DNA of 64,000 nucleotides from a virus. Its lineage: Duplodnaviria; Heunggongvirae; Uroviricota; Caudoviricetes. Position numbers and translations under genes: made by a program. Below are positions 8,994 through 47,406 of this stretch, piece after piece. Positions within the stretch are counted from its first letter, which is position 1, and every line of letters starts with the position of its first letter. The stretch is from the IMG/VR virus record IMGVR_UViG_2851955134_000009. One strand, given 5' to 3'. Under the pieces are notes generated by a model, which saw nothing but the letters and a program-made list of their open reading frames with translations, searched no databases and had not been told where the DNA came from.

Positions 8994-9566
8994 TTACATT
9001 TCAGGTTCCGTTATGACAGTCCCAACAGGGTGATAGCGGTAGATCGTTGACAGTCCAATATCATAGATAATTGCCAGCCGCTTTCTGTCATACCCTTTCT
9101 GGAGCAATCTTGCGATCTGCTCATGCTGCTCCTTCGTCAGTTTCGGGCGACGTCCTCCAACTCTCCCTTGTGCTCGCGCAGCAGCCAGTCCTGCCAGCGT
9201 GCGCTCAACTATCAGTTCACGCTCCATTTCTGCCAGTGCACCCATCATATGAAAAAAGAACCTTCCCATCGGAGTGCTGGTATCGATTGAATCCGTCAGA
9301 CTGCGAAAATTGACACCTTTTGCGCGTAGCTCTTCTGTGAGAGCAATGAGGTGTTTCATTCTTCTACCCAACCGATCCAGCTTCCAGACCACCAATGTAT
9401 CCCCTCTTTTAAGGCACTTTAAAGCGCGTTTCAGGCCTGGTCGTTCCGACTTGGTTCCGCTCATTTTGTCCTCAAAAATCTGTTCACATCCTGCGCACAT
9501 TAATGCATTGCGTTGCAAATCTGTGTTTTGGTCATTTGTTGACACACGTATGTAGCCAATCAGCAT
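8994..9566 (-). CDS. serine DNA invertase (Gin/Pin/Hin family)
   Basis: 190 aa from MLIGYIRVSTNDQ...; catalytic-serine N-terminal domain and C-terminal HTH typical of invertases. Start placed at the internal Met because the longer track ORF overlaps the fibre segment. Confidence 0.85.
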   Translation of the reverse strand: MLIGYIRVSTNDQNTDLQRNALMCAGCEQIFEDKMSGTKSERPGLKRALKCLKRGDTLVVWKLDRLGRRMKHLIALTEELRAKGVNFRSLTDSIDTSTPMGRFFFHMMGALAEMERELIVERTLAGLAAARAQGRVGGRRPKLTKEQHEQIARLLQKGYDRKRLAIIYDIGLSTIYRYHPVGTVITEPEM

Positions 9567-9622
9567 TAAAAATACTCCCTTTTGAGTGGTTAAAGTACTG
9601 AGATAATGTGAGGAGGATTTGA

Positions 9623-9648
9623 GAGATAAACGTTGGTTTGGGGGAAGG
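9623..9648. other. invertase crossover site (hix/gix-like), Mu-like cassette, invertase-proximal
   Basis: gagataaacgttggtttgggggaagg; core AAACCAACGTTT is shared with the sites at 11224, 50937 and 52762, and is inverted relative to 11224. Confidence 0.5.
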
Positions 9649-10099
9649 CTCTGCATTGCCTGTTGGTGTACCGGTTCCATGGCCCACCGCCACACCGCCA
9701 GCAGGCTGGTTACAGTGCAACGGAGCTACGTTCACCAAAGAACAATATCCTGTTCTGGCCAGAGTCTACCCGACCCTCCGTCTTCCCGATTTGCGCGGTG
9801 AGTTTATCCGTGGATGGGACGGTGGTCGCAAGGTTGATACCGGGCGTGCGCTACTTTCATTTCAGGAAGGGACTATCGTATCCGGTTTTGATGATAATGA
9901 TACCGGAGATATCAGTTCGCTCGGCTCTACACAATACGGATTTGGTGACGCTTTAACCTCTAATCAACTGGGGGTCATAAATGGCAAAAAGTGGATATTT
10001 GATGCATCCTCTAAAGGTGCACAAAGATATGACTGGTGGGCTTATGTATCAGCTCGCCCCCGCAATATCGCATTTAACTATATCGTGAGGGCGGCGTGA
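9638..10099 (+). CDS. alternative tail-fibre C-terminal (tip) segment, promoterless inverted cassette
   Basis: Begins with GEGSALPVGVPVPWPTATPPAGW, the same junction peptide found inside the fibre gene at 10720-12489; opposite orientation; ends NIAFNYIVRAA. Confidence 0.6.
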   Translation: MGEGSALPVGVPVPWPTATPPAGWLQCNGATFTKEQYPVLARVYPTLRLPDLRGEFIRGWDGGRKVDTGRALLSFQEGTIVSGFDDNDTGDISSLGSTQYGFGDALTSNQLGVINGKKWIFDASSKGAQRYDWWAYVSARPRNIAFNYIVRAA

Positions 10100-10720: not shown

Positions 10721-12489
10721 TAAACTGCCCTCACAATGTAATTAAGTGCAATGCTACGGGGTCTGACAGTGATACCCTTCGCATACCCGCTTCTGATAGA
10801 GGTCAGAATAGTAGCCTGCATACCATTGTCTGACATTGCCACGACAGGATCGCTGAATGTTGTCCCGTCCGGCATTTTAAAGCTGCCCTCACGAAGGTCT
10901 GTAATGGAATCTTCATTGTTGAATCCCATGCCGACTATCCCCGAGGTTCCCGTAGTGTCCTGGTTATAATAATCCAGCATTGCTGTTCTTAACAGCGTTG
11001 CCCCTTGTGCGGACAGCAACTTACGTCCTGTATCAACTTTGCGCCCGTCGTCCCATCCACGGATAAACTCACCGCGCAAATCGGGAAGACGGAGGGTCGG
11101 GTAGGCTCTGGCCAGAACAGGATATTGTTCTTTTGTAAAGGCGCGCCCGTCGCACTTTAACCAGCCTGCTGGCGGTGTGGCGGTGGGCCACGGAACAGGC
11201 ACACCAACGGGTAGCGCCGAGCCTTCTCCTAAACCAAGGTAATTGAGGACATCTTTTATACTGCCCTTAGCGATAATAGCGCGACCAATAGCTGTAAGGG
11301 TTGCCAGCGCTGCGCGGTCTGCTCCGGTAAAATAAGGCAACCGATCTGCTGCAGTGGCAAGTCCTGCCAGAGCAGTGAGCGTGGCATCTGCCGGTTGTTT
11401 TCCGTTTGCCAGATCGTATGCAGCCTTGACCGCTTTCGGTGTGGCGGCCAGTATTTCAGACGTGCTGTTGATGGCACTGCTCAGTTGTACGGTGCCTTTT
11501 GCCGTCAGCGAGGCCGCAGGCACTCCCGTTATCTGACTCCACGGGTGAGTGTGGCTGGCAGGCGCCTTGCCGGCTGCCAGGTCGTATGCAGCCTTGACCG
11601 CTTTCGGTGTGGCGGCCAGCGTTTCAGACGTGCTGTTGATGGCACTGCTCAGTTGTACGATCCCTTTACGGGTCGTTGTTGCATCCTGGGCTGTGTATTT
11701 TCCCCGGGCCAGATCATACGCGATTTTCACAGCCTTCGGCGTGGCAGCCTCAGTTTCTGATTGACTGTCCGTGGCGCTGCTCAGTTGTACGGTGCCTTTT
11801 GCCGTCAGTGAAGCCGCAGGCACTCCCGTTATCTGACTCCACGGGTGAGTGTGGCTGGCAGGCGCCTTGCCGGCTGCCAGGTCGTATGCAGCCTTGACCG
11901 CTTTCGGTGTGGCGGCCAGCGTTTCAGACGTGCTGTTGATGGCACTGCTCAGTTGTACGATCCCTTTACGGGTCGTTGTTGCATCCTGGGCTGTGTATTT
12001 TCCCCGGGCCAGATCATACGCGATTTTCACAGCCTTCGGCGTGGCAGCCTCAGTTTCTGATTGACTGTCCGTGGCGCTGCTCAGTTGTACGGTGCCTTTT
12101 GCCGTCAGTGAAGCCGCAGGCACTCCCGTTATCTGACTCCACGGGTGAGTGTGGCTGGCAGGCGCCTTGCCGGCTGCCAGGTCGTATGCAGCCTTGACCG
12201 CTTTTGGTGTGGCGGCCAGCGTTTCAGAGGTGCTGTTGGTGGCACTGCTCAGTTGGGTGAACCCCTTAGCTGTCAGTGTCGCGTCCGGGTGGTTACGGGA
12301 ACGTACGTGTTCAGCCAGTGACTGTGCGGCTTCCTCCGTTTTCTTCTTCAGCCATTTCGTCCTGTTTGCCAGTTGCCGGGGGGCTCGATTTGATATCCCG
12401 TCTGCACCACCCAGAACCGGATCTGATGTCTCCAGTTGATAGATATTTTCTTCCCACTTTTCTGTTTCATTCAGGTTTCCCATAATCAA
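10720..12489 (-). CDS. tail fibre protein with internal tandem repeats
   Basis: 589 aa; Ala/Thr-rich repeats of about 100 aa; C-terminal tip segment begins at the crossover junction (LGLGEGSALPVGVPVPWP). Confidence 0.8.
   Translation of the reverse strand: MIMGNLNETEKWEENIYQLETSDPVLGGADGISNRAPRQLANRTKWLKKKTEEAAQSLAEHVRSRNHPDATLTAKGFTQLSSATNSTSETLAATPKAVKAAYDLAAGKAPASHTHPWSQITGVPAASLTAKGTVQLSSATDSQSETEAATPKAVKIAYDLARGKYTAQDATTTRKGIVQLSSAINSTSETLAATPKAVKAAYDLAAGKAPASHTHPWSQITGVPAASLTAKGTVQLSSATDSQSETEAATPKAVKIAYDLARGKYTAQDATTTRKGIVQLSSAINSTSETLAATPKAVKAAYDLAAGKAPASHTHPWSQITGVPAASLTAKGTVQLSSAINSTSEILAATPKAVKAAYDLANGKQPADATLTALAGLATAADRLPYFTGADRAALATLTAIGRAIIAKGSIKDVLNYLGLGEGSALPVGVPVPWPTATPPAGWLKCDGRAFTKEQYPVLARAYPTLRLPDLRGEFIRGWDDGRKVDTGRKLLSAQGATLLRTAMLDYYNQDTTGTSGIVGMGFNNEDSITDLREGSFKMPDGTTFSDPVVAMSDNGMQATILTSIRSGYAKGITVRPRSIALNYIVRAV
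11224..11249. other. invertase crossover site (hix/gix-like) inside the Mu-like fibre gene
   Basis: ttctcctaaaccaaggtaattgagga, at the constant/variable junction of the fibre protein. Confidence 0.5.
11521..12120. repeat. two identical 300-bp tandem copies within the tail-fibre gene (diverged partial copies flank)
   Basis: Sequence from 11521 onward is identical to that from 11821 onward; a third, diverged copy starts at 12121; in frame (100 aa per unit). Confidence 0.8.
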
Positions 12490-35471: not shown

Positions 35472-36236
35472 ATGAAAATGCAGACATTACCCATCGTTCC
35501 ATGGATTGGTGGCAAACGCCGCCTTGCAAAACACATTCTGCCGCTGTTTCCGGCGCATGAATGTTATGTGGAGCCGTTTTGTGGGGCAGCAGCGCTCTAT
35601 TTTCTTAAGACACCCGGCAAGATCGAAGTCATCAATGATATCAACGGTGAACTGGTGAATCTGTACCGGGTGGTAAAGCATCACCTGGAAGAATTTGTCC
35701 GCCAGTTCAAATGGGCGCTGGTCAGCCGTCAGATCTACAAATGGCTGCAGATCACCCCGGAAGAAACACTGACGGATATCCAGCGTGCGGCACGGTTCTA
35801 CTACCTTCAGAAGCAGGCGTTTGGCGGCAAGGTGGCAGAGCACAGCTTCGGTACCTCCACCACATCCCCGCCACGCTTCAACCTGCTGCGTATTGAAGAA
35901 GAACTGTCAGCGGCACACCTGCGGCTTTCCAGAACAGTCATAGAACACATGGACTGGCAACAGTGCATTGAGCGTTATGATCGTCCGCACACGCTGTTCT
36001 ACTGCGACCCACCGTACCTGGGTACGGAAGGCTATGGTGTGGATTTTCCTGAAGGGAACTACTCGCGGCTGGCAGAGCTGGCCCGGTGCATCAGAGGAAA
36101 AATGATAATTTCGGTGAACGACATCCCGCAGATGCGCGAGGTGTTCACTGGACTGAACATACAGACAGTGAATATCAACTACAGTCTGGCGGGTAAATCC
36201 ACGCCGCGCCGTGAACTGCTAATCTGCAACTTCTGA
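35472..36236 (+). CDS. DNA N6-adenine methyltransferase (Dam/D12 class)
   Basis: AdoMet-binding motif EPFCGAAALYF near the N-terminus and catalytic DPPY motif; 254 aa. Confidence 0.8.
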   Translation: MKMQTLPIVPWIGGKRRLAKHILPLFPAHECYVEPFCGAAALYFLKTPGKIEVINDINGELVNLYRVVKHHLEEFVRQFKWALVSRQIYKWLQITPEETLTDIQRAARFYYLQKQAFGGKVAEHSFGTSTTSPPRFNLLRIEEELSAAHLRLSRTVIEHMDWQQCIERYDRPHTLFYCDPPYLGTEGYGVDFPEGNYSRLAELARCIRGKMIISVNDIPQMREVFTGLNIQTVNINYSLAGKSTPRRELLICNF

Positions 36237-36247
36237 AACAAAACCGG

Positions 36248-36270
36248 AAAGCACAATGCTTTCCGGTAAA
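36248..36270. terminator. hairpin downstream of the methyltransferase gene
   Basis: ccggaaagc/gctttccgg inverted repeat, located between convergent genes. Confidence 0.35.
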
Positions 36271-36352
36271 CCAAACAACTTCCACTATGTCACTGGCGAT
36301 GTTTTCTGAAATCATCCAGATCAACCACCTGTCTTTTGTGTCCGGGTCAGTA

Positions 36353-36700
36353 TCAGCCTGCGATTTTTCCTGGTTTTGGCTGAGTATAGAAGCGCCCAAC
36401 CTCAAGAAATGAGCGTCGTTGCTCCGGAGTCATTTCATCAAATGCGTCCATTAATTTCTGTTTGTCTGGTGACATTTTTGGGATAGCGTTGGTAGTTGCA
36501 TCCCCTCTCTGTCCCGTAACAACGTAAAGCACGTCAAGCCCCAAAGTAGCCCAAATTGCCAAAGCATCTGCTCCGGGAGCGGATTCATCCTTTTCCCACC
36601 GCAATTGGCTTTTATAGGATGCCCCCACCAATTCAGCAAACTCAGACTGACTAAATCCTAGGCGGTTTCGTTCTTCTTTTAATCGTGAACCAAGTGACAT
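36353..36700 (-). CDS. HTH (XRE-type) repressor, Mu c-like position
   Basis: N-terminal HTH (LKEERNRLGFSQSEFAELVG); divergently transcribed from the Ner-like gene. Confidence 0.6.
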   Translation of the reverse strand: MSLGSRLKEERNRLGFSQSEFAELVGASYKSQLRWEKDESAPGADALAIWATLGLDVLYVVTGQRGDATTNAIPKMSPDKQKLMDAFDEMTPEQRRSFLEVGRFYTQPKPGKIAG

Positions 36701-36793
36701 TTTTGTCCCAATATCTATTTACATATCCCATTATTGGGATAATAATCTAACAAATATAAAGCAAACATCATTGCACTAAACAAGGAGACAACA
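36701..36793. promoter_or_regulatory. divergent early control region with operator-like inverted repeat
   Basis: Intergenic region between repressor and Ner-like genes; contains atccca-ttat-tgggat (36725-36740) plus a related half-site upstream. Confidence 0.3.
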
Positions 36794-36982
36794 ATGACTG
36801 CAGACCAGGTCAAAGCTCATTTCCGTCGCAATGGGATCACTTTTACCCAGTGGGCAAAACAGAACAACTACACCAGAGCGGAGGTTTACCGCGTACTGAA
36901 TGGCCAGGTAAAAGCGAACTACGGCAAAGCCCATGAAATCGCTGTCAAGCTGGGATTAAAAACCATCACTGACGCCGCTTAA
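36794..36982 (+). CDS. Ner-like DNA-binding protein
   Basis: 62 aa; the segment GKAHEIAVKLGL resembles the Ner/Nlp family; first gene of the rightward early operon. Confidence 0.6.
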   Translation: MTADQVKAHFRRNGITFTQWAKQNNYTRAEVYRVLNGQVKANYGKAHEIAVKLGLKTITDAA

Positions 36983-37035
36983 AAAGATACAGCATACGAA
37001 AAAGATTATCACATATTGAAAAAAGAGGTGTGCAG

Positions 37036-37344
37036 ATGAGTAAGACGAATGTTTCAAGCTCCGGCAGTCGCATCCTCCGGGTACTAAAAGCGCTGCGTGG
37101 TCATGCTCTGAACGGTATTTCCAACGGTGAACTGGCAGCAGCACTGCACGAGTCACCGGCGAACATCAACCGGGCACTCAACACCCTCATTGAAGAAGGG
37201 CTGGCTCTGAAACTGGAGAACGGACGTTTCGCACCGGGCATTCAGTTGCTGCAGATCGCCATGGCCCACAGTAACGAGATGGCACGTGCACAGGATCGTA
37301 TTAACGAAATTAACCAACGTGTTATTTCAGGAAGTCGTTTGTAA
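37036..37344 (+). CDS. putative winged-helix transcriptional regulator
   Basis: About 100 aa; HTH-like segment (ISNGELAAALHESPANINRALNTLIEEGL). Confidence 0.35.
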   Translation: MSKTNVSSSGSRILRVLKALRGHALNGISNGELAAALHESPANINRALNTLIEEGLALKLENGRFAPGIQLLQIAMAHSNEMARAQDRINEINQRVISGSRL

Positions 37345-37354
37345 GGAGTAATCA

Positions 37355-38272
37355 ATGGGACGCACCAAATCACCGGTTAGCACTGAACTGAACGTCGAGG
37401 TACCGCTGTCGGATGATCTCAATGTCAGTCTGAACGCCATGACACAGCATCGCATGGAAATCATGCAACAGTTCGGCGATGGTCTGCCCTATGAGCGCGA
37501 TCGTGTTGTCCATGAGGCACGCTTTTATATGGCACAGAGCGCTGAGGCCATGCTGGAGGCAGGTAAACGGCTAATAATCCTTAAGGAAAATGAACCACAC
37601 GGGGAGTTTATAAAGATTCTTGAAAGTGAGTTGGGGCTGGCATACCGGACATCTGTGAGAATGATGCAGGCATCGACAAAATACTTATCCCCGGCGCTGA
37701 AACCAAATGTGCCAACGTTGGCACATTTGGGAAAAGCCAAACTTTTCGAATTAATGACAGAAGACGACGAAGAGCTTGCCGAACTGGCCGACGGCGGTAC
37801 GGTTGCCGGCCTGACGCTTGACGATGTTGATCGCATGTCAGTACGTGAACTTCGTCAGGCCCTGCGCGAAGCGCGCGAAACCAATGCAGCACAACAGCGT
37901 GTTCTAGCCGACAAAAATGAAAAAATCGACTCACTCTCCACCAGGCTGGAGAAAAAATCCCGTATTCAACCGCCTGAGCCTGATGAAGAGGTGAAGAAGC
38001 TGCGGGCGGAAGTGACCGCATTAGCGGTTGAGGCGGAATCTGCCATCGCCGTCCGGCTCTCCGGTGCCTTTGAAACCCTGTGTGAATACTGCAGTAAAAA
38101 CATGATTGATACCCCCAGAGATTTCATGGCCGGTCTGGTCTGCCAGATTGAACGCAGTGTTCATGCATTGCGTGAGACGTTCGACCTTGATGCCGCACCA
38201 TCGGGTAACGATGTCCCCGCATGGCTGACCGAACCGGAGCCTGAAATCAACCGACCGGAGGGCATGCGTTAA
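37355..38272 (+). CDS. hypothetical protein (early region)
   Basis: 305-aa ORF with a coiled-coil central region, between Ner-like and transposase genes. Confidence 0.35.
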   Translation: MGRTKSPVSTELNVEVPLSDDLNVSLNAMTQHRMEIMQQFGDGLPYERDRVVHEARFYMAQSAEAMLEAGKRLIILKENEPHGEFIKILESELGLAYRTSVRMMQASTKYLSPALKPNVPTLAHLGKAKLFELMTEDDEELAELADGGTVAGLTLDDVDRMSVRELRQALREARETNAAQQRVLADKNEKIDSLSTRLEKKSRIQPPEPDEEVKKLRAEVTALAVEAESAIAVRLSGAFETLCEYCSKNMIDTPRDFMAGLVCQIERSVHALRETFDLDAAPSGNDVPAWLTEPEPEINRPEGMR

Positions 38273-38589
38273 TGAACACGAATAATACACAAAATATCCT
38301 GATGGACAGCCCGGAAGCACTGGGGCACGCACTGTGTAATCTGCTGCCGGAGATGGTGCAGGGTTTCCGCGTGGTGACACCTTCCGGTGAAATCTGCGTA
38401 CCCGCACAGGAGGCGCATCCGTTTGTACTGACGATGGAAGTGATGCTGATGCAGCAGATAAGACGTCTGCAGCATCAGTCAGCATTGCGCCCGGCAGTTG
38501 CGCCGCAACCGGTAAATAACGTGGTGAAAACCTGCGATGGCGAAACCCTGCGCGACCGTGCCAGAAAAATTGCCGCCAGAATCGGATAA
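38272..38589 (+). CDS. hypothetical protein
   Basis: 105-aa ORF whose start overlaps the upstream stop. Confidence 0.3.
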   Translation: MNTNNTQNILMDSPEALGHALCNLLPEMVQGFRVVTPSGEICVPAQEAHPFVLTMEVMLMQQIRRLQHQSALRPAVAPQPVNNVVKTCDGETLRDRARKIAARIG

Positions 38590-38604
38590 CAGGGAAGACA
38601 AGCT

Positions 38605-40374
38605 ATGACCCCGGCACTGACTGAAAAACTTGTTGAAACAGCCCGCGCGGCACGTAATGCGGGGCATGGTAAACGCGGTGCAATATACGACGCTGCCTGT
38701 GCTGAACTTGGCATGTCCCGCGCCACTCTGCTGCGCAGGCTGAAGGAGGTCTCTGTGACTGATAAACGCAAAAAACGCGCCGATGCCGGACGCAGCACCC
38801 TGACCCGCGACGAAGCCGCGCTGATATCTGCCACACTACGTGAGGCCACCCGCAAGAACGGTAAGCGTCTCTATTCCATCGCGGATGCAGTGGAAACCCT
38901 GCGGGCTAACGGCTTTATCTCCGCAGGCAGAACAGATGAAACCACCGGTGAGTTTTTCCCGTTGTCCGAAGATGCCATCAGTCGTGCCCTGCGTAACTAT
39001 GGCCTGCACCCGGAACAACTGGATGCCCCTGCACCGCATACCGAAGTGGCCAGTCTGCACCCCAATCATGTCTGGCAGATTGACGCCTCACTCTGCACGC
39101 TTTACTACCTGAGCAATGGACATAAAGGGCTGCAGGTGATGGACAGCGCGAAATTCTACAAAAACAAGCCCGCTAACCTTGCCCGTATCGCCAGTGACCG
39201 CGTGTGGAGTTACGAGATTACCGACCATGCCAGCGGCTGGATTTACGTTGAGTATGTGACGGGTGCGGAATCCGGTGAGAACCTGTGTTCTGTGCTTATC
39301 AACGCCATGCAGGAGCGTGGCGGCGCAGACGTGCTGCACGGCGTGCCAAAAATACTCTATCTCGACCCCGGCTCGGCAAACACCGCGGGTATGACGAAAA
39401 ACATGTGCCGCTCACTGGGCATCGACCTGATAGCGCACAAGCCGCATAACGCCCGCGCCACCGGACAGGTGGAAAAGGCGCGTGACATTATCGAACGCAA
39501 GCTGGAGCCGGGTCTGAAGTTCCGGCCGGTTCACAGTCTGGAAGAACTCAACGCGCTGGCCGCGAAATGGCGCAGCCACTTTAACGCCACGGCTGTTCAC
39601 AGCCGCCACGGTAAAACCCGCACGGATATCTGGCTGAAGATTACTGCTGAGCAGCTGAAAAAAGCGCCTTCCGTTGAGGTATGTCGTGAACTGGCTGTGG
39701 CGGCACCAGAACTCCGCAAAGTCACGCCAAAACTTCGTGTCTCGTTCCGGGGCACTGAATTTGACGTATCAACGGTACCGGGCGTACTGGTCGGTGAAAA
39801 ACTGATGATTACCCGTAACCCGTGGCGCAGCGATGTGGCACAGGTGGTTCTGACCGGTGAGGACGGCCACGAGACGTTCTTCCTGGTCGAAGAGGTCAGA
39901 AAGAACGAGTTTGGCTTTGCTGAAGGCGCGGCGGTATTTGGCGAAAGTTACAAAGCCCTGCCGGAAACCCCGGCGCAGATGGCGGCAAAAGAAACCGAAG
40001 CGCTGGTCACCGGTACAGACAACGCCGCAGATGCAGCTGCCGCACGCAAGGCGAAGGCGCTGCCGTTCGGCGGGCGGCTTGACCCGTATAAACATATTGA
40101 TGACGCCACACTTCCGGCCTGTATACCGAAGCGTGGTCAGGCCTCTGACGTACGCGGACCGCGCACTGAACAGCGTCCCATGACTCATGTGGAGGCCGCG
40201 AAAGCCCTGCGCGGGAAGTTTAGCGCAAACGGCCTGACCTGGACGCCGGAACATTACCGCCAGTTAACAGCACAGTACCCGGACGGCGTACCGGAAGCCG
40301 CACTGGATGAAGTCATGGCCACGCTGACCACGCCGGCCCGCAGCAGCGTTATCAGCATTGTTAACGGCAACTGA
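38605..40374 (+). CDS. DDE transposase (MuA-like)
   Basis: 589 aa; rve-type catalytic core with candidate DDE residues (WQIDAS, YLDPGSANT, downstream E); followed by a MuB-like ATPase. Confidence 0.75.
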   Translation: MTPALTEKLVETARAARNAGHGKRGAIYDAACAELGMSRATLLRRLKEVSVTDKRKKRADAGRSTLTRDEAALISATLREATRKNGKRLYSIADAVETLRANGFISAGRTDETTGEFFPLSEDAISRALRNYGLHPEQLDAPAPHTEVASLHPNHVWQIDASLCTLYYLSNGHKGLQVMDSAKFYKNKPANLARIASDRVWSYEITDHASGWIYVEYVTGAESGENLCSVLINAMQERGGADVLHGVPKILYLDPGSANTAGMTKNMCRSLGIDLIAHKPHNARATGQVEKARDIIERKLEPGLKFRPVHSLEELNALAAKWRSHFNATAVHSRHGKTRTDIWLKITAEQLKKAPSVEVCRELAVAAPELRKVTPKLRVSFRGTEFDVSTVPGVLVGEKLMITRNPWRSDVAQVVLTGEDGHETFFLVEEVRKNEFGFAEGAAVFGESYKALPETPAQMAAKETEALVTGTDNAADAAAARKAKALPFGGRLDPYKHIDDATLPACIPKRGQASDVRGPRTEQRPMTHVEAAKALRGKFSANGLTWTPEHYRQLTAQYPDGVPEAALDEVMATLTTPARSSVISIVNGN

Positions 40375-40384
40375 GGAGGGAAAC

Positions 40385-41551
40385 ATGCTGGTACTGAAGC
40401 AGCAACTGAAAGAGGCCCGTATTCCACAGGCGGTGGCGGCGAGAGCTGTCGATGTTTCTGAGGCCACGCTGGCCCAGATTGTGAATCATAACGCGTGGCC
40501 CCGCACCAGCCCCGGAGAAGTGCGCCGGCGTCTTGCGTCCTGGCTGGAAAGTCAGGGGATTGATACAACGAAGAGTTTTGATGCTGTACAGGGCGCGGCC
40601 ACGCCCCGTACAGCGGGTACCACAGATAAAACGAGCCTCAGTGAGGAAGAGAATATGTTACTCAAAAAACAGGTGTTATTTCCAGCAACCAAAAAAGCGT
40701 TTGGTCTTTTCCGTGACCCGTTCGCCGATGAAGCCATGCAGGGTTCTGATGATGTGTTCACCACCCCGGACATTCGCTACGTGCGTGAGGCGCTGTACCA
40801 GACAGCCCGTCATGGTGGGTTTATGGCCGTCATCGGTGAGTCCGGTGCGGGTAAATCCACGCTGCGCCGCGACCTGACTGAACGTATTAACCGCGAGAAT
40901 GCGCCGGTAATTGTTATCGAGCCATACATCATCGCTATGGAAGACAACGATGTGAAAGGGAAAACCCTGAAGGCAGCAGCTATTGCCGAAGCCATTATCA
41001 GTACCATCGCACCACTGGAAAGCATCAGACGCAGTCAGGACGCCCGCTTTCGCCAGTTGCATCGCGTCCTGAAAGACAGCAGCCAGGCGGGGTTCAGCCA
41101 CGTTCTGGTGATTGAGGAGGCCCACAGTCTGCCCATTCCGACACTGAAACACCTCAAACGCTTTTTTGAGCTGGAGTCCGGTTTCAAAAAACTGCTGTCC
41201 ATCGTGCTGATTGGCCAGCCGGAACTGGCGACAAAACTGTCTGAACGCAATATGGAAGTCCGTGAAGTCGTTCAGCGCTGTGAGGTGGTCGAACTTCTGC
41301 CTCTGGACAATAACCTTGAAGAATTTCTGACGTTCAAACTGCAACGGGCCGGTAAACAACTGACGGACATTATGGACGCCAGCGCAGTGGATGCCATACG
41401 TGCCCGCCTGAGCAATCCGGGAAGTCATCGTAAAAATATGGTCAGCCTGCTGTATCCGCTGGCCGTCAGTAACCTGGTAATAGCCGCCATGAATCTGGCC
41501 GCTGAAATCGGGGTTCCACAGGTCAACGCTGACGTTGTCAAAGGAGTTTAA
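40385..41551 (+). CDS. transposition ATPase (MuB/TniB-like AAA+)
   Basis: Walker A GESGAGKST, Walker B-like HVLVIEEAH; immediately downstream of the transposase. Confidence 0.65.
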   Translation: MLVLKQQLKEARIPQAVAARAVDVSEATLAQIVNHNAWPRTSPGEVRRRLASWLESQGIDTTKSFDAVQGAATPRTAGTTDKTSLSEEENMLLKKQVLFPATKKAFGLFRDPFADEAMQGSDDVFTTPDIRYVREALYQTARHGGFMAVIGESGAGKSTLRRDLTERINRENAPVIVIEPYIIAMEDNDVKGKTLKAAAIAEAIISTIAPLESIRRSQDARFRQLHRVLKDSSQAGFSHVLVIEEAHSLPIPTLKHLKRFFELESGFKKLLSIVLIGQPELATKLSERNMEVREVVQRCEVVELLPLDNNLEEFLTFKLQRAGKQLTDIMDASAVDAIRARLSNPGSHRKNMVSLLYPLAVSNLVIAAMNLAAEIGVPQVNADVVKGV

Positions 41552-41553
41552 TA

Positions 41554-41823
41554 ATGAAATCCACCACAGGTATCAACCAGCAAATCAGCAAAGTGCAGTC
41601 AGCCATTATGGCGCTTAAGGCGACGAACACGGATGTACAAAGCATCACCATCAGGGGTAACAAACCTGTCATCCGCGTTTCCCGGAGTGCGCATTGCATG
41701 CGCATGCTTGAGCAGGGAAAGGCCTGTTATCTGTATACCGGACATGACCACAGGGGATATTTCCGTCAGGGCGTTTTCGAACTGCACGGCTGTCGCGTCG
41801 TGTGGCCGGAATCTTTGTGGTAA
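41554..41823 (+). CDS. hypothetical protein
   Basis: 89-aa ORF directly after the ATPase gene. Confidence 0.3.
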   Translation: MKSTTGINQQISKVQSAIMALKATNTDVQSITIRGNKPVIRVSRSAHCMRMLEQGKACYLYTGHDHRGYFRQGVFELHGCRVVWPESLW

Positions 41824-41850
41824 TCAGCACAACCGGAGAAATCATAAAAT

Positions 41851-42381
41851 ATGGCAAAAAGTACAAAAGGGGCAAAACGTATCAAGGCCGCAGCGGCACT
41901 CTGGGTACCAGGGACACGCGAAGAGGTCATTGAGGGAATCAGACTACTCGGTGACGCACAACGTGAACTGGTCAGGGCTGAAACAGAAATGAATGACGCC
42001 ATTGGCGATATCACCGCACGTTATGCCCCGCTCACCGAGAGCCTGAAAAAACGCATGGCCGAACTGCAGTCCGGTATCCAGACATGGTGTGAGGCGCACC
42101 GTGATGAACTGACCGGCAACGGGAAGGTGAAGTTCGCTAACCTTACCACCGGCGAGGTGCAGTGGCGAAACCGTCCGCCATCAGTCAGTATCCGTGGGGC
42201 GGATAATGTTATTGAATTACTGAGACGTCTGGGGCTTGAGCGCTTTATTCGTGTAAAAGAGGAAATAAATAAAGACGCTATCCTGAATGAAAAAGAGGCC
42301 GTGAAAAATATTCCCGGTATTTCCATTAAAAGCGACATTGAGGATTTTTCAATAATTCCTTTTGAGCAGGATGTGCAGTAA
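41851..42381 (+). CDS. Gam-like host-nuclease inhibitor protein
   Basis: 176 aa; position after the B-like gene as in Mu. Confidence 0.5.
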   Translation: MAKSTKGAKRIKAAAALWVPGTREEVIEGIRLLGDAQRELVRAETEMNDAIGDITARYAPLTESLKKRMAELQSGIQTWCEAHRDELTGNGKVKFANLTTGEVQWRNRPPSVSIRGADNVIELLRRLGLERFIRVKEEINKDAILNEKEAVKNIPGISIKSDIEDFSIIPFEQDVQ

Positions 42382-42478
42382 ACACACCACGTTAATTATT
42401 TAATAAAAACATTTTCTTTTTTATTCCGGCGTCAGCGCCGCGGGCTTCTGCACGCCGGAAACAGAGGAGAATTAAATC

Positions 42479-42673
42479 ATGATATTTAAATGTATTCAGT
42501 GCGAGAGGGATATAACAGCCCTGCGTTTTCACAGCGCCATCGCCGTGATGTCCGGTAAATACCACATCCCTGCGGTACGCGTCACCCTGGTCTGCCCGTA
42601 CTGCAGCCAGCATTTTTCGGCGGACGTGCCCGTCATGGAATTCTCCCGCCCTGACAGGGAGGACGCGCAATGA
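42479..42673 (+). CDS. zinc-ribbon small protein
   Basis: 64 aa with CIQC...CPYC. Confidence 0.3.
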   Translation: MIFKCIQCERDITALRFHSAIAVMSGKYHIPAVRVTLVCPYCSQHFSADVPVMEFSRPDREDAQ

Positions 42674-42942
42674 TTACCCCACAGGAAGCACGACAGCGCA
42701 CCCGAACCCTTGTTGAACACTATGTCAACGAGTGTGAATGCCGCAACCTCACCGATGTGAAGCACGTCCTGACGGCACTAATCAGTATGGCCGCTCAGGC
42801 CATTGTGGCAACCAACGGAAAGGCGGCTGCCCTGCAGGTACTGGTGAACACACTCACCCACACGGCAGAGCATGAGGTGCCGTACCGGATGGAAACCACT
42901 GCAGAAGGCGGCCTGCACATCACCGTCAGCCGGAAGCACTGA
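42670..42942 (+). CDS. hypothetical protein
   Basis: 90-aa ORF in an operon-like run with overlapping start/stop codons. Confidence 0.3.
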   Translation: MITPQEARQRTRTLVEHYVNECECRNLTDVKHVLTALISMAAQAIVATNGKAAALQVLVNTLTHTAEHEVPYRMETTAEGGLHITVSRKH

Positions 42943-42951
42943 GGGCGCGGC

Positions 42952-43248
42952 ATGACACGGAACACCATACTCACCCGCACCGCCCTCTACCGTCTGGCCC
43001 TGCAGCGTTTCGGGCCGGACGCACAGGCCCTGAAACTGACAGAAGAGGCCGCTGAACTGGCGGCCAGTGCTGCCCGCAATCTGAACGGACAGGGCAGCGA
43101 AAGTGACCTCGCGGCAGAGCTGGCAGACGTGGAAATCATGACAGAGCAATTGCGCCTTCAGGGAATGGACCGGCTGATTGACTTCCACAAACAGAAAAAA
43201 CTGGAACGTCTGGCTGCACGACTGGGCGTGATTTACACGAACGAGTAA
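42952..43248 (+). CDS. hypothetical protein
   Basis: 98-aa ORF, early region. Confidence 0.3.
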   Translation: MTRNTILTRTALYRLALQRFGPDAQALKLTEEAAELAASAARNLNGQGSESDLAAELADVEIMTEQLRLQGMDRLIDFHKQKKLERLAARLGVIYTNE

Positions 43249-43262
43249 CCGGGAGGCATTCA

Positions 43263-43478
43263 ATGGCTGACATACTCAGGGAAATCACCGCATGGACACT
43301 GATTCTTACTGGCCTGGCGACATGCCTCAGTGCGGGAGCAGCCCTGGCTGCCCTGCTGATGCACATAACAACACAGTGGTTATGGGAAAAGCTTAAAGCA
43401 GCATACAGCCTGAAAGAGCTGTCCGACGCTGTCCGGGCATGGAAACGGCAGAAAAATACCGGAGATACAGAACAATGA
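43263..43478 (+). CDS. small membrane protein
   Basis: 71 aa with one TM segment (ITAWTLILTGLATCLSAGAALAALLM). Confidence 0.3.
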   Translation: MADILREITAWTLILTGLATCLSAGAALAALLMHITTQWLWEKLKAAYSLKELSDAVRAWKRQKNTGDTEQ

Positions 43479-44158
43479 CAGACCAGAATAAACACATTGA
43501 GAAACTGAAAAAGTTGCTGGCGCTGGCCGCATCCGGCAACCCGCACGAGGCCGCTCTGGCACTGCGCCGAGCCCGTAAACTGATGGATGTTCACGGCATC
43601 ACACATTCCGACATTGCTATGAGTGATATTGATGAAACCATCAGTCATTACTGGCCGACAGGCAGTCTCCGTCCACCGCGCTACATGCTGGGCCTGATGA
43701 ACATCATCCGCGAGGCATTTGGTGTTAACTCCATCATTCACCCCGGCACGCATCCGTCTGTGGGGTTCTACGGTAACCGGGAACGAGCGGCACTGGCTGC
43801 GTACACCTGGGAAGTGCTGGTCCGCCAACTGAAAAAGGCGCGTCAGCAGTATATCAGCGCACAGAACAAAAGAATAAAAAACGCCACCCGTACCAGCCGT
43901 GGAGACCAGTTTGCTGAAGGCTGGGTACTGGCCGTTATCAGTGAAATACAGTCCTTTGCCCTGACCGATGATGAGCGTGAACTGATGCAACAGTGGCTGG
44001 AACATAAATACCCGCAAACGCAAACCACCAGGGCGCGTAAACCGGGAAGAAGCCGCAATGGCGACGTCTCGCGCTATGCGGGGTTTCGTGAAGGGCAGAA
44101 CGTCAGACTGCACCGCCCGGTCAGTGGGCAGGAACAGCAGAAACTGGAGGCCAGATGA
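43476..44158 (+). CDS. hypothetical protein
   Basis: Start placed at MTDQNKHIEKL; about 227 aa. Confidence 0.35.
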
Positions 44159-44375
44159 TTACGTTATCAGGTAACAGCCGGAAATTAAAAGCCTGCCGAA
44201 TATCTCCCAGATACCTTTTTGCCCGCGCCTTTTTTAAGAACGTCAGGCCGGGGATCACAATTGGTGTTATTGCCGGACGCGAACAGGTTGAAAAATACAT
44301 GTCAGGTGCATGGTGGAATAAAGACCCTGTCATTGCTGCCCGTAATATTCATATCAGTTGGGGGGATATTCAGAA

Positions 44376-44590
44376 TGACTGCTGAATCTGTTGTATGTGC
44401 CCTGTTCTGGTATTGTTTTGTCGGTTGGTGTACTGCTGAACTGCACCGCCGTTCAGGGTTTTATTCACGTTACAGTGGTGCCGGTTACTGGATTAGCTGG
44501 TCGGTGATGTTCCTGTGCTGGCCTGTGGCATTTCCTTTATATGTCTATTATATCAGTGATGCAGGCAGAAGGAGCAACGATGATGACTAA
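44376..44590 (+). CDS. small membrane protein
   Basis: About 70 aa with two hydrophobic segments; overlaps the longer track ORF 44219-44590. Confidence 0.3.
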
Positions 44591-45032
44591 ACAACGTCTT
44601 ATCCAGCTTATCCATATTGCCCGTAATGAACTGGGTATGGATGAAGACACCTACCGCCAGATGTTACAGGGGCTGACCGGTAAAGCCTCAACCAAAGGAA
44701 TGGATACCACACAACTAAACTGCGTGCTGGAATCCATGAAAAAGAAAGGCTTTCGCGTTAAACCAGCCAGAAAAGCCAGCTCCGGTTTACCGCTGGATAA
44801 CCATCCGCAGTCCAGGAAAATTCGTGCGCTATGGCTTGAAATGGCTGCTGCCGGCATTGTTCGTGACCGTTCAGAAAATGCATTAGCGAGGTGGATCAAG
44901 CGGGAAACGGGCATCAGCGCCCTGCGCTGGCTCAGTACTGAACAGGCAGGCAGTGTTATTGAGAAACTGAAGAAGTGGCAGCACAGAGCTGCGGGAGTAA
45001 AACATGAGCGACCTGAATCAGTTTCGAAGTAA
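44580..45032 (+). CDS. GemA-like regulatory protein
   Basis: Start placed at MMTKQRLIQLIHIARNELGMDEDTYRQ; position immediately upstream of the Mor-like gene as in Mu. Confidence 0.55.
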   Translation: MMTKQRLIQLIHIARNELGMDEDTYRQMLQGLTGKASTKGMDTTQLNCVLESMKKKGFRVKPARKASSGLPLDNHPQSRKIRALWLEMAAAGIVRDRSENALARWIKRETGISALRWLSTEQAGSVIEKLKKWQHRAAGVKHERPESVSK

Positions 45033-45402
45033 AGGGCCGGAACTCCTGGTGGAACTGGCACAGCATACCTCTGAGACCGTTCGCGAGATTATTGATATTG
45101 AGCCCGCAATTGCCGACCAGATTGGTCAGGCCGTCGCGAACCGCATGATGCAGGTCTGGGGCGGGCAAAACGTTTATTTCCCGATGGGCATGGTATGGAA
45201 GGTCAGTCAGCGCGACCGGGAAATCTTCAGGGAGTTTAACGGACGTAACCACCATGAACTGGCCCGCAAATTTGGTGTTTCGCTTCAGTGGGTCTACAGC
45301 GTGGTTAAGCGGGTAAGAAAAGAAGAACTGGATCGGATGCAGGGCAGGTTGTTTGATGAAGATCTGCCAGAGGAGACGAAAGACGTTAACAAATCCAGAT
45401 AA
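45004..45402 (+). CDS. Mor/C-family transcriptional activator
   Basis: 132 aa; C-terminal HTH (HELARKFGVSLQWVYSVVKR) typical of Mor/C. Confidence 0.65.
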   Translation: MSDLNQFRSKGPELLVELAQHTSETVREIIDIEPAIADQIGQAVANRMMQVWGGQNVYFPMGMVWKVSQRDREIFREFNGRNHHELARKFGVSLQWVYSVVKRVRKEELDRMQGRLFDEDLPEETKDVNKSR

Positions 45403-45447
45403 TTCCTGCTTGTTAAAGTCCTTTCAAAAATCTCCTTATTGTATAAA

Positions 45448-45479
45448 AGCACGGTAGACCCCTTACCGTGCTTTTTTTA
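45448..45479 (+). terminator. rho-independent terminator after the Mor-like gene
   Basis: Stem agcacggta/taccgtgct with a 7-nt loop followed by a T7 run. Confidence 0.6.
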
Positions 45480-45516
45480 TGCTCTCTCTTTAGTATTCAG
45501 GATGCAGGGAGAAAAT

Positions 45517-46149
45517 ATGTTTGACGTTTCGTTGTTAAATCTGCCATGGGCAACACTGGTGACCCTGACCAGTGGCTATATTGGGTATTTTATTGCGAAT
45601 GTGGGACTGAAGGATCACCACAAGCCCATTGAGGTGACTTTTTCTTCGCTGATTTTTGGCCTGACAGCAATGATGGCTTACCAGGCTGTTATGTGGGCAG
45701 GTCTGAATGCCTGGCTGGCAACACCACCAGCACTTCTGTGTGCCGTTACATGCGGTGCGTGGTGGCGCAGGTACGGTCGCAAATGGATGTACAGATTACT
45801 GTGGAATAATGATATTTCATGGTCTGACGATACCAGCTCAGCATGGCAGGCAATGTTTGATCAAACAGGCTTCAGCGTTACCGAGGTCAGAGTGATTCTT
45901 CGCGATGGTTCCGGTATGATGTCACGGCTGCCAGGGAACTTTGAAGAGTGGCCTAACGGTCCGTTTACCCTGGGGAATAAAGGCGATATGGTTCTTTACG
46001 TCACGCACAGCAGCCCTTCAGGCAGTAACGAATGGGAAGAGTATAAAGGCGTGGTTGATAAGTACTGGGGAGCTCTGGCAACCTATATTCCAGCAGATCA
46101 GATTGCCAGAGTGGAGATCAGGCGCGTTCGTGCAACGAACGATGAATGA
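45517..46149 (+). CDS. membrane protein of unknown function at the element terminus
   Basis: Start placed at MFDVSLLNL; three to four N-terminal TM segments and a C-terminal soluble domain; isolated between a terminator and the element end. Confidence 0.4.
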   Translation: MFDVSLLNLPWATLVTLTSGYIGYFIANVGLKDHHKPIEVTFSSLIFGLTAMMAYQAVMWAGLNAWLATPPALLCAVTCGAWWRRYGRKWMYRLLWNNDISWSDDTSSAWQAMFDQTGFSVTEVRVILRDGSGMMSRLPGNFEEWPNGPFTLGNKGDMVLYVTHSSPSGSNEWEEYKGVVDKYWGALATYIPADQIARVEIRRVRATNDE

Positions 46150-46466
46150 TGTTTATTTTTTCCCTGGGGCAGGGGCTGCCGGCATAGTGGTTTTATTGGC
46201 AGAGGAAGACGATTCTCCTTTTCTACCGGAATCGCGCTCGAACGTCACGATGTGCTTGCTTTTGGGCTTTTCTGAGTAATCCAGGCTATCATGCTTATTG
46301 TTTTGAGTAGTCATTGGAATCATCCTTTTTGTTGCGGGTCATGTTTCAGCAAACTCGATTCTAAGTTGCCAGGAAGGATGATTTCAATGCCCGACTTATC
46401 TATCGTATAGCGGAAAAGAATTTCAGTTCTGTTCACCAGAACCCATGTTAACCCACTCCAATTCGT

Positions 46467-46510
46467 TATTTATCTCACGGATCCCCCTTCATTTATCTCA
46501 TGTCTGATCA
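46467..46510. repeat. Mu-like element terminal repeat, right-hand copy in window coordinates (putative transposase-binding sites)
   Basis: Reverse complement reads TGATCAGACATGAGATAAATG...GTGAGATAAATAA, matching the end at 8916. Confidence 0.55.
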
Positions 46511-46516
46511 ATTATT
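46511..46516. repeat. ATTATT direct repeat, right copy (putative target-site duplication)
   Basis: Identical to 8910-8915. Confidence 0.6.
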
Positions 46517-46535
46517 GCGTGTCAGGAGCGAAACA

Positions 46536-46967
46536 GTGAACAAACCACAATCCCTGCGCCACGCCCTCAATAAAGCGGTGCCTTATGTCCGCAATAACCC
46601 GGACAAACTGCATCTGTTTGTGGATAACGGTTCGCTGGTTGCCACGGGGGCCAGCTCCATGTCATGGGAGTACCGCTACACCCTGAACGTGGTGATTGAG
46701 GATTTCAGCGGCGACCAGAATCTGCTGATGGCCCCGGTTTTGCTGTGGCTGCGTGATAACCAGCCCGATGCCATCAATAACCCGGCGTTACGGGAAAAGC
46801 TATTCACCTTTGAGGTGGATATTCTGCGCAACGATGTCTGTGATATCAGCCTCAACCTGCAACTGACGGAGCGTGTGCTGGTCAGCACTGACGGCAGTGT
46901 GTCGAGCGTTGAAGCTATAGCGGAACCTGATGAACCTGAAGAAATGTGGACGGTGAAACGTGGCTGA
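46536..46967 (+). CDS. R: tail completion protein (P2 gpR-like)
   Basis: GTG start at 46536 with an AGGAG RBS; the upstream ATG of the track ORF (46500) lies inside the Mu-like terminus. Confidence 0.65.
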   Translation: MNKPQSLRHALNKAVPYVRNNPDKLHLFVDNGSLVATGASSMSWEYRYTLNVVIEDFSGDQNLLMAPVLLWLRDNQPDAINNPALREKLFTFEVDILRNDVCDISLNLQLTERVLVSTDGSVSSVEAIAEPDEPEEMWTVKRG

Positions 46968-47406
46968 ACTGCAGAAAGTGGACGACTGGCTGAGTGCCTT
47001 GCTGGCGAATCTGGAGCCAGCCGCAAGAAGCCGCATGATGCGCCAGCTGGCGCAGGAACTACGCCGGACACAGCAGCAAAATATCAGAATGCAGCGCAAT
47101 CCAGATGGCAGCAGTTATGAACCGCGACGGGTAACAGCACGCAGTAAAAAAGGCCGTATCAAACGTCAGATGTTTGCAAAGCTGCGCACCACAAAATACC
47201 TGAAAACTTCCGCCAGCGCCGACTCTGCCAGCGTGCAGTTTGAAGGCAAGGTGCAGCGCATTGCCCGCGTTCACCATTACGGCCTGCGAGATCGCGTCAG
47301 TCGTAAGGGACCGGAGGTGCGTTACGCAGAGCGTCGCCTTCTGGGTGTAAATGATGATGTTGAGGCAATGACCCGCGACATGATTCTGCAATGGCTGGCG
47401 GGGTGA
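46960..47406 (+). CDS. S: tail completion protein (P2 gpS-like)
   Basis: 148 aa overlapping the R stop, as in P2. Confidence 0.7.
   Translation: MAELQKVDDWLSALLANLEPAARSRMMRQLAQELRRTQQQNIRMQRNPDGSSYEPRRVTARSKKGRIKRQMFAKLRTTKYLKTSASADSASVQFEGKVQRIARVHHYGLRDRVSRKGPEVRYAERRLLGVNDDVEAMTRDMILQWLAG

Follow-up and report, generated by a model that had tools for sequence, protein, structure and literature searches.

Nine small genes between the B-like ATPase and GemA/Mor genes of a BcepMu-type Escherichia coli prophage

Nine tightly packed ORFs on the + strand occupy positions 41554-44590 of the window, i.e., the whole 64,000-nucleotide stretch of viral DNA that was analysed (IMG/VR record IMGVR_UViG_2851955134_000009), and are flanked by the gene of a B-like ATPase and the genes of GemA and Mor. 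They are real and conserved genes, and they probably constitute the accessory ("semi-essential"-type) distal half of the single early operon of a BcepMu-type E. coli prophage.

The element extends from 8916 to 46510, has terminal inverted repeats and a 6-bp target duplication, and is 97.7% identical at the nucleotide level to Escherichia phage PhiKM (PQ738613, Bcepmuvirus) over 94% of the region. Prophages of this family were found in 632 of 5426 complete E. coli genomes (about one in nine), UPEC and APEC strains included. The Mu-like prophage of the window sits inside a P2-like prophage.

Layout of the region and reality of the genes

The genes, their boundaries and one conserved intergenic element are as follows.

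40385-41551, + strand: upstream boundary, B-like ExeA/AAA ATPase (PGAP 'ExeA family protein'; 59% identity to BcepMu gp08)
41554-41823, + strand: orf1, 89 aa, basic
41851-42381, + strand: gam, 176 aa
42395-42478, + strand: conserved intergenic element, an AT/U-rich tract and a GC-rich hairpin followed by the Shine-Dalgarno (SD) sequence of orf3
42479-42673, + strand: orf3, 64 aa, C5xxC8...C39xxC42
42670-42942, + strand: orf4, 90 aa, soluble
42952-43248, + strand: orf5, 98 aa
43263-43478, + strand: orf6, 71 aa, single hydrophobic helix
43475-44158, + strand: orf7, 227 aa, basic, pI 10.1
44155-44385, + strand: orf8, 76 aa, basic
44375-44590, + strand: orf9, 71 aa, two hydrophobic segments
44583-45032, + strand: downstream boundary, GemA (PF06252, E 2e-40; PGAP 'gp16 family')
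45004-45402, + strand: downstream boundary, Mor (PGAP 'Mor transcription activator family')

All genes lie on the same strand, close together or overlapping (by 4-11 nt with the next gene in most cases), and each of the nine is preceded by an SD-like sequence, which speaks for one early operon. A promoter-like site at 36718-36746 adjoins the divergently oriented gene of an HTH repressor, and no other was found on the + strand between 36746 and 46600. The strongest terminator-like site of the + strand, a hairpin with a 13-bp stem and a T-run, is located at 45445-45475, just past Mor, and weaker matches occur inside the operon, including 41787-41808 and 42189-42205 (+ strand) in the region itself. 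All these sites are consensus matches, and the scans gave in total no more promoter- and terminator-like sites than in shuffled sequence.

The first-pass annotation had placed about nine short ORFs between the B-like ATPase and GemA/Mor genes, and the nine lie exactly where it put them. That some of them are open frames arisen by chance in a spacer without coding function is extremely improbable. Several are shorter than 80 aa and have no Pfam family, and the annotators of PhiKM left out orf3 and called an antisense ORF in its place, but the comparative data already refute this explanation. All nine have full-length PHROG matches (E 1e-12 to 1e-77), their SD sequences and overlaps indicate translational coupling, and the cysteines of orf3 are conserved across genera. 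Purifying selection was found in all seven ORFs tested against one relative (locus L005), with pN far below pS. In comparison with an 83%-identical relative, dN/dS is 0.12-0.29 for orf3, orf5, orf7, orf8 and orf9, and orf1 has pN 0.20 and pS 0.80 (saturated); pN/pS is about 0.48, i.e., still below 0.5, for orf4 and orf6. A look-up of the seven small unnamed ORFs (the set without gam and orf7) found all of them in a public collection of 5.8 billion proteins, five as the exact sequence on at least 1000 contigs.

Predicted gene products

The earlier statement that no ORF has an obvious function holds for six of the nine proteins, which lack an informative homologue, and fails for Gam, orf5 and orf7, which can be assigned to families. 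They comprise the HI_1482-family protein of orf1, the 4-Cys zinc ribbon of orf3, the small soluble proteins of orf4 and orf8 and the membrane peptides of orf6 and orf9. Nothing of use came from scanning all ORFs with PADLOC and NCBIfam.

The Gam-like gene noticed earlier matches PF07352 (E 9.9e-41, 139.6 bits against a cut-off of 28.3, profile positions 1-148 of 149) and phrog_491 (E 5e-73), labelled 'host nuclease inhibitor', and its product is 62% identical to Mu Gam by tblastn. As judged by these comparisons, it is a clear orthologue of Mu Gam and a predicted member of the Ku-like family of DNA-end-binding host-nuclease inhibitors. The Gam protein of Mu forms a dimer, binds the ends of double-stranded DNA and blocks RecBCD and its loading (PMC12407980).

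The product of orf5 matches phrog_2245, 'nucleoside triphosphate pyrophosphohydrolase', with E 2.8e-34, and PGAP gives the same label to orf5 alleles. The Pfam match to PRA-PH is sub-threshold (14.5 bits against a cut-off of 21.3), as is the score for every family of the MazG clan; seven of ten homologues match PRA-PH and one matches MazG, also sub-threshold. Neither orf5 nor its profile gave a meaningful match in a PDB sequence search. The metal-binding motif of the MazG-like family is EXXE(12-28)EXXD, and orf5 contains E32-A-A-E35, 20 residues and E56-L-A-D59. In an alignment of ten sequences E31, E61 and E65 are invariant and E56 and D59 nearly so, and E32 and E35 vary in one or two members each; dN/dS is 0.14. 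The product of orf5 is predicted to be a MazG-like (all-alpha) NTP pyrophosphohydrolase whose EExxE...ExxD motif is intact. Atd1, a MazG-like enzyme from a phage, depletes (p)ppGpp and gives protection from the toxicity of TIR-STING (Ho et al., bioRxiv 10.1101/2022.06.09.495361). Atd1 and orf5 both comprise a short phage MazG-type catalytic domain with twin acidic motifs and are encoded amid accessory genes, a likeness drawn from their descriptions; orf5 is sub-threshold for the Pfam models of the clan.

In orf7, scanned as a 239-aa form of the ORF, two Pfam domains follow each other from the N- to the C-terminus, both above threshold: DUF2786 (PF10979, 42.9 bits, cut-off 23.9, residues 20-56) and DUF7168 (PF23771, 92.1 bits, cut-off 25.5, residues 58-201). 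Structure prediction was run on orf7 and orf1, and the predicted model of orf7 has a possible KH-like core, KH domains being marked by a beta-alpha-alpha-beta-beta-alpha fold with a GXXG loop. No functional study of DUF2786 or DUF7168 was found in the literature. Directly after B comes orf1, kept more widely than any other gene of the module, and PGAP calls its homologue 'HI_1482 family'. The G[GS]...[DE]x[DE] catalytic motif of the nucleotidyltransferase fold of the Pol-beta type is absent from its product, and PDB sequence searches with orf1 and orf7 gave no meaningful match.

The gene orf4 (phrog_3691, E 4e-55) is variable, being present in only 3 of 50 related loci, and fast-evolving: it is 77% identical in locus L007, against 95-97% for its neighbours. 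The product of orf8 matches phrog_3681 over its full length (E 2e-52), has no Pfam, NCBIfam or PADLOC match and shows a dN/dS of 0.14. The two membrane-peptide calls of the earlier annotation stand. The variable orf6 (phrog_3958, E 1e-41) encodes a predicted single-pass membrane peptide with a hydrophobic helix at about residues 12-33. The product of orf9 (phrog_6436, E 1e-12; 'Prophage membrane protein' in one source) has hydrophobic segments at about residues 3-21 and 44-60 and is probably a two-pass membrane peptide.

A role of orf6, orf9 and perhaps orf4 in lysogenic conversion or superinfection exclusion, to the benefit of the lysogen and not in the lytic cycle, is quite unlikely. The short membrane proteins encoded by orf6 and orf9, the absence of orf6 from loci L005 and L007, the replacement of the orf9 allele in PhiKM (38% identity, against 93-98% for its neighbours) and the relaxed constraint on orf4 and orf6 would suit such a role. 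On the other hand, orf6 and orf9 lie within the early operon under repressor control and overlap other genes of it, with no + strand promoter-like site downstream of the one at the repressor, and the small membrane proteins gp19 and gp20 of Mu are also encoded close to the early region, just downstream of Mor.

The intergenic hairpin and the orf3 zinc ribbon

In the intergenic element the stem at 42424-42435 pairs with 42448-42460, and the SD of orf3, GAGGAG, is located at 42465-42470. The RNA fold has an energy of -29.5 kcal/mol (z -4.3), and in the MFE structure the U-tract pairs with the SD. The element is about 90% identical across relatives with saturated dS in the flanking genes, and it was found in 14 of 55 loci and on 75 IMG/VR contigs, with compensatory changes (UA<->AU and UA<->CG). 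In phage Mu, too, a hairpin follows gam at the corresponding position, and its AT-rich and GAAACAG flanks are similar. No Rfam family was found in 36000-47000 at E<=1. An intrinsic terminator was rejected, as the T-run precedes the stem and neither strand has a U-run after it. Strict coupling to the zinc ribbon was rejected too, some variants preceding unrelated genes and the hairpin of Mu preceding gp11, and the long-stem model is not universal: the relatives from Pectobacterium and Serratia keep the 5' half and break the long helix.

The ribbon reported earlier at 42479-42673 is encoded by orf3 and has the pattern CxxC-30-CPxC (phrog_3401, E 1e-40). All 13 true homologues in the alignment retain the cysteines C5, C8, C39 and C42. 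The family is narrow (10 cluster representatives among 1.84 billion), dN/dS is 0.29, and the minimal modules of Photorhabdus and Brenneria retain no ORF but orf3. In size and in the 4-Cys CxxC...CxxC ribbon beginning at residue 5, orf3 is like Com of Mu, a 62-aa zinc-ribbon translational activator. The cysteine spacing is 30 residues in orf3 and 16 in Com, and no Pfam Com match was obtained at E<=0.1, just weak matches to unrelated zinc fingers. According to PMC6483171, Com binds an mRNA hairpin upstream of mom. Similarly to this setting, orf3 adjoins a conserved mRNA hairpin able to occlude an SD; unlike the target of Com, the hairpin precedes orf3 itself and also unrelated genes, and it occurs in Mu. 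The likeness of orf3 to Com is a resemblance only.

Mosaicism among relatives and possible functions

In 50 related loci with conserved A, B, GemA and Mor, the interval between B and GemA ranges from 309 to 4306 bp and contains about 55 protein clusters; the shortest ones, in Photorhabdus, may come from prophages undergoing decay, a remnant of Gam being seen in locus L033. Every gene of the module is absent from some relative; slots are swapped (Gam or DUF3164), and alleles of orf4 and orf9 are replaced. Across families, orf1 is kept in 24 of the 50 loci, always directly after B, orf7 in 24 as well and the orf3-type ribbon in 20. Other E. coli copies lack orf6 or have an extra 127-aa gene. The gene order in PhiKM is the same, with all genes except Gam annotated as 'hypothetical'. 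It seems that the module behaves as a dispensable, mosaic accessory region, as does the semi-essential (SE) region of Mu.

The equivalence to Mu proposed earlier is correct as to position, from B to GemA/Mor, and does not extend to homology. The SE region of Mu (kil, gam, E5-E15) lies at the same point of the early operon, with the B ATPase before it and GemA/Mor after it, and likewise consists of many short, tightly packed genes, mostly of no assigned function. The two regions share an orthologous Gam; the other eight ORFs have no detectable homologue in Mu (tblastn, E<0.1), and the SE region has no DUF2786/DUF7168 gene, MazG-like gene or zinc ribbon. Unlike Mu, the phage studied here has a BcepMu-type backbone, and its early operon reads toward the genome end. 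BcepMu itself shares the genus-level Bcepmuvirus backbone (identities of 68% for the transposase, 59% for B, 43% for GemA and 56% for Mor) and has an accessory interval, gp03-gp07, in the same place, between gp08 (B-like) and gp02 (GemA). Its gene content is entirely different, comprising DUF3164 (gp05), HU (gp04), DUF2528 (gp03) and two unknowns and none of the nine ORFs. Since no ORF but Gam is homologous to an early gene of Mu or BcepMu, the equivalence to Mu is positional and not by descent.

As an accessory part of the early operon, the module would act as follows. On induction or infection, transcription would probably start at the promoter-like site by the repressor (about 36.7 kb), run through the transposase A and B genes, the nine genes, GemA and Mor, and stop at the putative terminator at 45445-45475. 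With one early transcript through A, B and the nine genes, their products would be made at the same time as the transposition machinery, within minutes of the onset of lytic growth, and would condition the host, not build the virus. The predicted activities differ: Gam, as a Ku-like dimer, would cap free phage DNA ends and keep RecBCD off; the MazG-like enzyme would hydrolyse a nucleoside polyphosphate (NTP, dNTP or alarmone), blunting a starvation or suicide response of the host; the DUF2786-DUF7168 protein with its putative KH-like core and the 4-Cys ribbon might bind nucleic acid as regulators or protectors; and orf6 and orf9 would be inserted into the inner membrane.

It is possible, but on the whole not probable, that orf1, orf3, orf5, orf7 and perhaps orf8 and orf9 are instead auxiliary factors of replicative transposition or of early gene regulation, with possible roles in handling of target DNA or the transpososome, in the transition to replication or in post-transcriptional control of early mRNA. 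The constant place of orf1 after B, the wide retention of orf1, orf7 and the ribbon, and the strong purifying selection noted above are consistent with this, as are the basic orf7 with its predicted KH-like core, the Com-sized ribbon just after a hairpin that could occlude its SD, and the lack of anti-defence homology. However, BcepMu and Mu transpose without any of these genes, and orf1, orf5 or orf7 is missing from many relatives whose A, B, GemA and Mor are intact. For orf1, orf3 and orf7, kept across genera, a helper role in transposition or replication fits as well as host takeover.

Apart from the PHROG label of Gam, no known anti-defence family was found among the nine ORFs or among the representatives of 20 protein clusters that fill the corresponding slot of relatives by general Pfam and PHROG annotations, a screen that distant or newly described families could escape. 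Only Gam, by RecBCD antagonism, and the MazG-like enzyme, by the precedent of Atd1, appear linked to host defence in the literature, and an anti-defence role for the module is plausible by analogy.

In relatives, Gam and DUF3164 occupy the same slot after orf1 and never co-occur. Distant homology of the two was rejected (hhalign probability 0.7%), and no functional study of DUF3164 was found in the literature. It is rather doubtful that the module is an arms-race cassette, in which this alternation is combined with a cis-acting RNA element and the hypervariable orf4, orf6 and orf9 are new counter-defence or exclusion effectors. In such a cassette, the slot may have undergone repeated swaps between Gam and the unrelated DUF3164 across the B phylogeny. 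As the two alternate and are never found together, DUF3164 would be a non-homologous DNA-end protector or RecBCD antagonist, and a swap of Gam could permit escape from defences such as Gabija, licensed by GamMu. The U-tract and hairpin may be the RNA element, as an SD-occluding or processing site, and it would gate the downstream accessory genes, possibly with the Com-like ribbon.

Beyond its Gam protein, no anti-defence role is shown for the module, and the region ranks for now as an ordinary case of a familiar type of phage locus. The prophage family is found in about one complete E. coli genome in nine, so that its early accessory genes rank with the most frequent phage genes of the species that still await characterisation. 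Cheap and concrete targets for experiments are the alternation of Gam with DUF3164, the MazG-like enzyme, the conserved hairpin and the three hypervariable genes. If any of the early accessory genes encode counter-defence or host-takeover factors, they would affect the spread of Mu-like phages and the interplay of prophage induction and host immunity.

Gene layout of the early module

Nine ORFs lie between the B-like ATPase gene and GemA/Mor where the first-pass annotation had placed them, which confirms the nine-gene cluster that it described. In the ORF list of the window they belong to an unbroken run of plus-strand genes across 37-48 kb:

40385-41551, +, B-like (ExeA/AAA) ATPase gene
41554-41823, +, orf1
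41851-42381, +, gam
42479-42673, +, orf3
42670-42942, +, orf4
42952-43248, +, orf5
43263-43478, +, orf6
43475-44158, +, orf7
44155-44385, +, orf8
44375-44590, +, orf9
44583-45402, +, GemA/Mor

An SD-like sequence precedes all nine ORFs, overlaps of 4-11 nt occur at five junctions, and all nine are also predicted by the NCBI pipeline in an E. coli chromosome with 99.9% identity. All nine match PHROG families over their full length (E 1e-12 to 1e-77). The seven small unnamed ORFs (those other than gam and orf7) all have entries in a public protein collection, annotated "hypothetical protein", and for five of them the exact sequence occurs on at least 1000 contigs. In comparison with an 83%-identical relative (L005), pS is 0.39-0.80, near saturation, and pN is 0.08-0.29; dN/dS is 0.12-0.29 for orf3, orf5, orf7, orf8 and orf9, and orf1 follows the same pattern. 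For orf4 and orf6, both lacking in L005, pN/pS against other relatives is about 0.48. The PHROG matches, the copies in the public collection and the excess of pS over pN rule out chance ORFs.

Upstream are an HTH repressor gene in divergent orientation and, at 36718-36746, a promoter-like site, and the strongest plus-strand terminator-like site (45445-45475, a 13-bp stem and T-run) directly follows Mor; both sites are consensus matches only. The terminator scan gave weaker matches inside the operon, two of them in the region, and its total was not above that of shuffled sequence. The position of the two sites suggests that the nine genes probably make up the distal portion of a single early transcript, the part that does not encode the transposase.

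Predicted proteins and the gam slot

The first-pass annotation found no ORF with an obvious function, which does not hold for three of them. The gam product is unambiguously Gam by its sequence (PF07352, E 1e-40; 62% identity to Mu Gam). The orf5 product is MazG-like, as judged by a match to phrog_2245 "NTP pyrophosphohydrolase" (E 3e-34) and by the motif E32xxE35...E56xxD59, with E61 and E65, kept across homologues. PGAP calls some orf5 alleles "nucleoside triphosphate pyrophosphohydrolase family protein", and 7 of 10 homologues have a sub-threshold Pfam PRA-PH match; orf5 itself is below the Pfam cut-off and had no match in a PDB sequence search. The third, orf7, carries DUF2786 and DUF7168, each above cut-off. 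Its confident AlphaFold model (pLDDT 86) is a lead, not proof, pointing to nucleic-acid binding; the list of structure matches also includes some SGTA/Sgt2 N-terminal dimerisation domains.

The previously noted zinc ribbon and membrane peptides were also recovered. The orf3 product has C5xxC8...C39xxC42, with the four cysteines kept in 13 of 13 aligned homologues, and its family is narrow (10 cluster representatives in 1.84 billion proteins); orf6 encodes one strongly hydrophobic helix and orf9 two hydrophobic segments. PGAP assigns orf1 to the "HI_1482 family"; its structure model is good (pLDDT 87), and all its viral structure matches are uncharacterised proteins. Searches of Pfam, PHROG, NCBIfam and PADLOC gave no informative match for orf4, orf6, orf8 and orf9. 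Protein clustering at 90% identity groups orf4 (90 aa) with the unrelated orf5 (98 aa), probably as an artefact caused by some fused or wrongly called sequence.

Among 50 related loci, Gam was found in 14 and DUF3164 in 23, together in none. They share one slot after orf1 (window 41851-42381; L005 2957-3568; BcepMu locus 1928-2545), and each B-identity band has examples of both, a pattern that implies repeated exchange among close relatives. Homology between them is not detectable (hhalign probability 0.7%), and those papers in the library searched that mention DUF3164 give no function. GamMu blocks RecBCD loading and licenses Gabija (PMC12407980), so an arms race is a reasonable hypothesis for this non-homologous replacement, and DUF3164 may be functionally analogous to Gam.

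A conserved element (42395-42478) lies in the 97 bp that separate gam from orf3. It consists of an AT/U-rich tract, followed by a GC hairpin (42424-42460) and then by the orf3 SD, with which the U-tract is predicted to pair. It folds far better than shuffled sequences (z -4.3), is present in 75 IMG/VR contigs and is about 90% identical across relatives, whereas the flanking genes, saturated at synonymous sites, are less conserved. Two stem pairs of the hairpin show compensatory changes, and in Mu a hairpin whose flanks resemble those here follows gam in the equivalent place (Mu locus 6350-6415). No Rfam match was found, and a terminator was rejected. More divergent relatives retain the 5' half only, so the structural model of the hairpin is provisional; the element likely serves in SD occlusion or as an mRNA processing site.

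Prophage context and variation among relatives

Escherichia phage PhiKM (PQ738613), classified in Bcepmuvirus, shares 97.7% identity with the region. Of 5426 complete E. coli genomes, 632 carry the region, in nearly all cases with 95-99% identity. Identity to Burkholderia phage BcepMu is 68% for the transposase, 59% for B, 43% for GemA and 56% for Mor. The prophage extends over 8916-46510. The inverted repeats at its termini are imperfect (TGAT...G.GATAAATG), and its boundary stretches (8910-8918 and 46505-46540) show a flanking 6-bp direct repeat, ATTATT. The reconstructed empty site matches, at 100% and in a single piece, the P2-like lysB-lysC-tail junction of many E. coli genomes; therefore, the Mu-like phage transposed into a P2-like prophage. 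On one side of the insertion point is lysC (Rz1-like) and on the other the tail-completion gene; the insertion clips the lysC 3' end and splits the P2 late genes.

A Gin/Hin-type serine invertase gene (8994-9695, minus strand) adjoins 229-nt inverted repeats (9630-9858 and 11012-11240, 86% complementary) bracketing tail-fibre C-terminal segments, which looks like an invertible host-range switch similar to the G segment of Mu. A 210-aa gene (45517-46149) with a hydrophobic N-terminal half is found past the terminator-like site of the early operon and before the prophage end; present in E. coli FDN-4 and absent from PhiKM, it is possibly cargo or a moron. In FDN-4 (L001 11139-15037) the prophage abuts an SPI-7-type island (dnaB-PI, ParB) holding its own DUF2786-domain gene beside parB, so such proteins recur on unrelated mobile elements.

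By tblastn, Gam is the sole match in Mu among the nine ORFs, and none was detected in BcepMu, whose own interval contains DUF3164, HU, DUF2528 and two unknowns. The proposed equivalence with the Mu semi-essential region is therefore positional (B to GemA/Mor), and does not extend to homology beyond Gam.

With B protein as the query, 48 loci were fetched from different species, and the B-GemA interval was measured where both genes were located. It is shortest in Brenneria alni (309 bp) and longest in Eikenella (4306 bp), with eight Photorhabdus species at about 720-790 bp, and its ORFs form about 55 clusters. Pfam matches of 20 other cluster representatives are DUF3164, DUF5420 and HU only, with no known anti-defence family among them. 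Clustering placed orf4 in 3 loci, orf6 in 1 and orf9 in 17; orf8, not scored by clustering, was found in 8 of 55 loci by tblastn. Among E. coli copies, some have orf6 and others lack it, and orf4 is 77% identical against 95-97% for its neighbours; PhiKM orf9 is 38% identical to that of the window. E. coli HN68 (L006 3067-3450) has an extra 127-aa gene between the MazG-like gene and orf6, with no Pfam match. Variation of this kind is characteristic of an accessory module that is mosaic and dispensable, with the caveat on dispensability that the shortest intervals may be those of decaying prophages, since one locus (L033) holds a Gam fragment.

Possible role of the module

The main alternative concerns the conserved members, namely orf1 and orf7 (24 loci each), orf3-type ribbons (20) and orf5 (18), which would assist transposition or early regulation. 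Best supported is a reading in which the module is an accessory part of the early operon and conditions the host. It would act in the first minutes of lytic growth, with Gam protecting ends, the MazG-like enzyme hydrolysing nucleotides or alarmones, for which Atd1 is a precedent (bioRxiv 10.1101/2022.06.09.495361), and orf7 and orf3 binding nucleic acids; two membrane peptides also belong to it. From the initial interpretation, an early accessory module in a Mu-type position stands; the anti-defence role, plausible for the hypervariable genes, draws no support from homology. The region represents a well-known kind of phage locus, of which this is a new, uncharacterised member.
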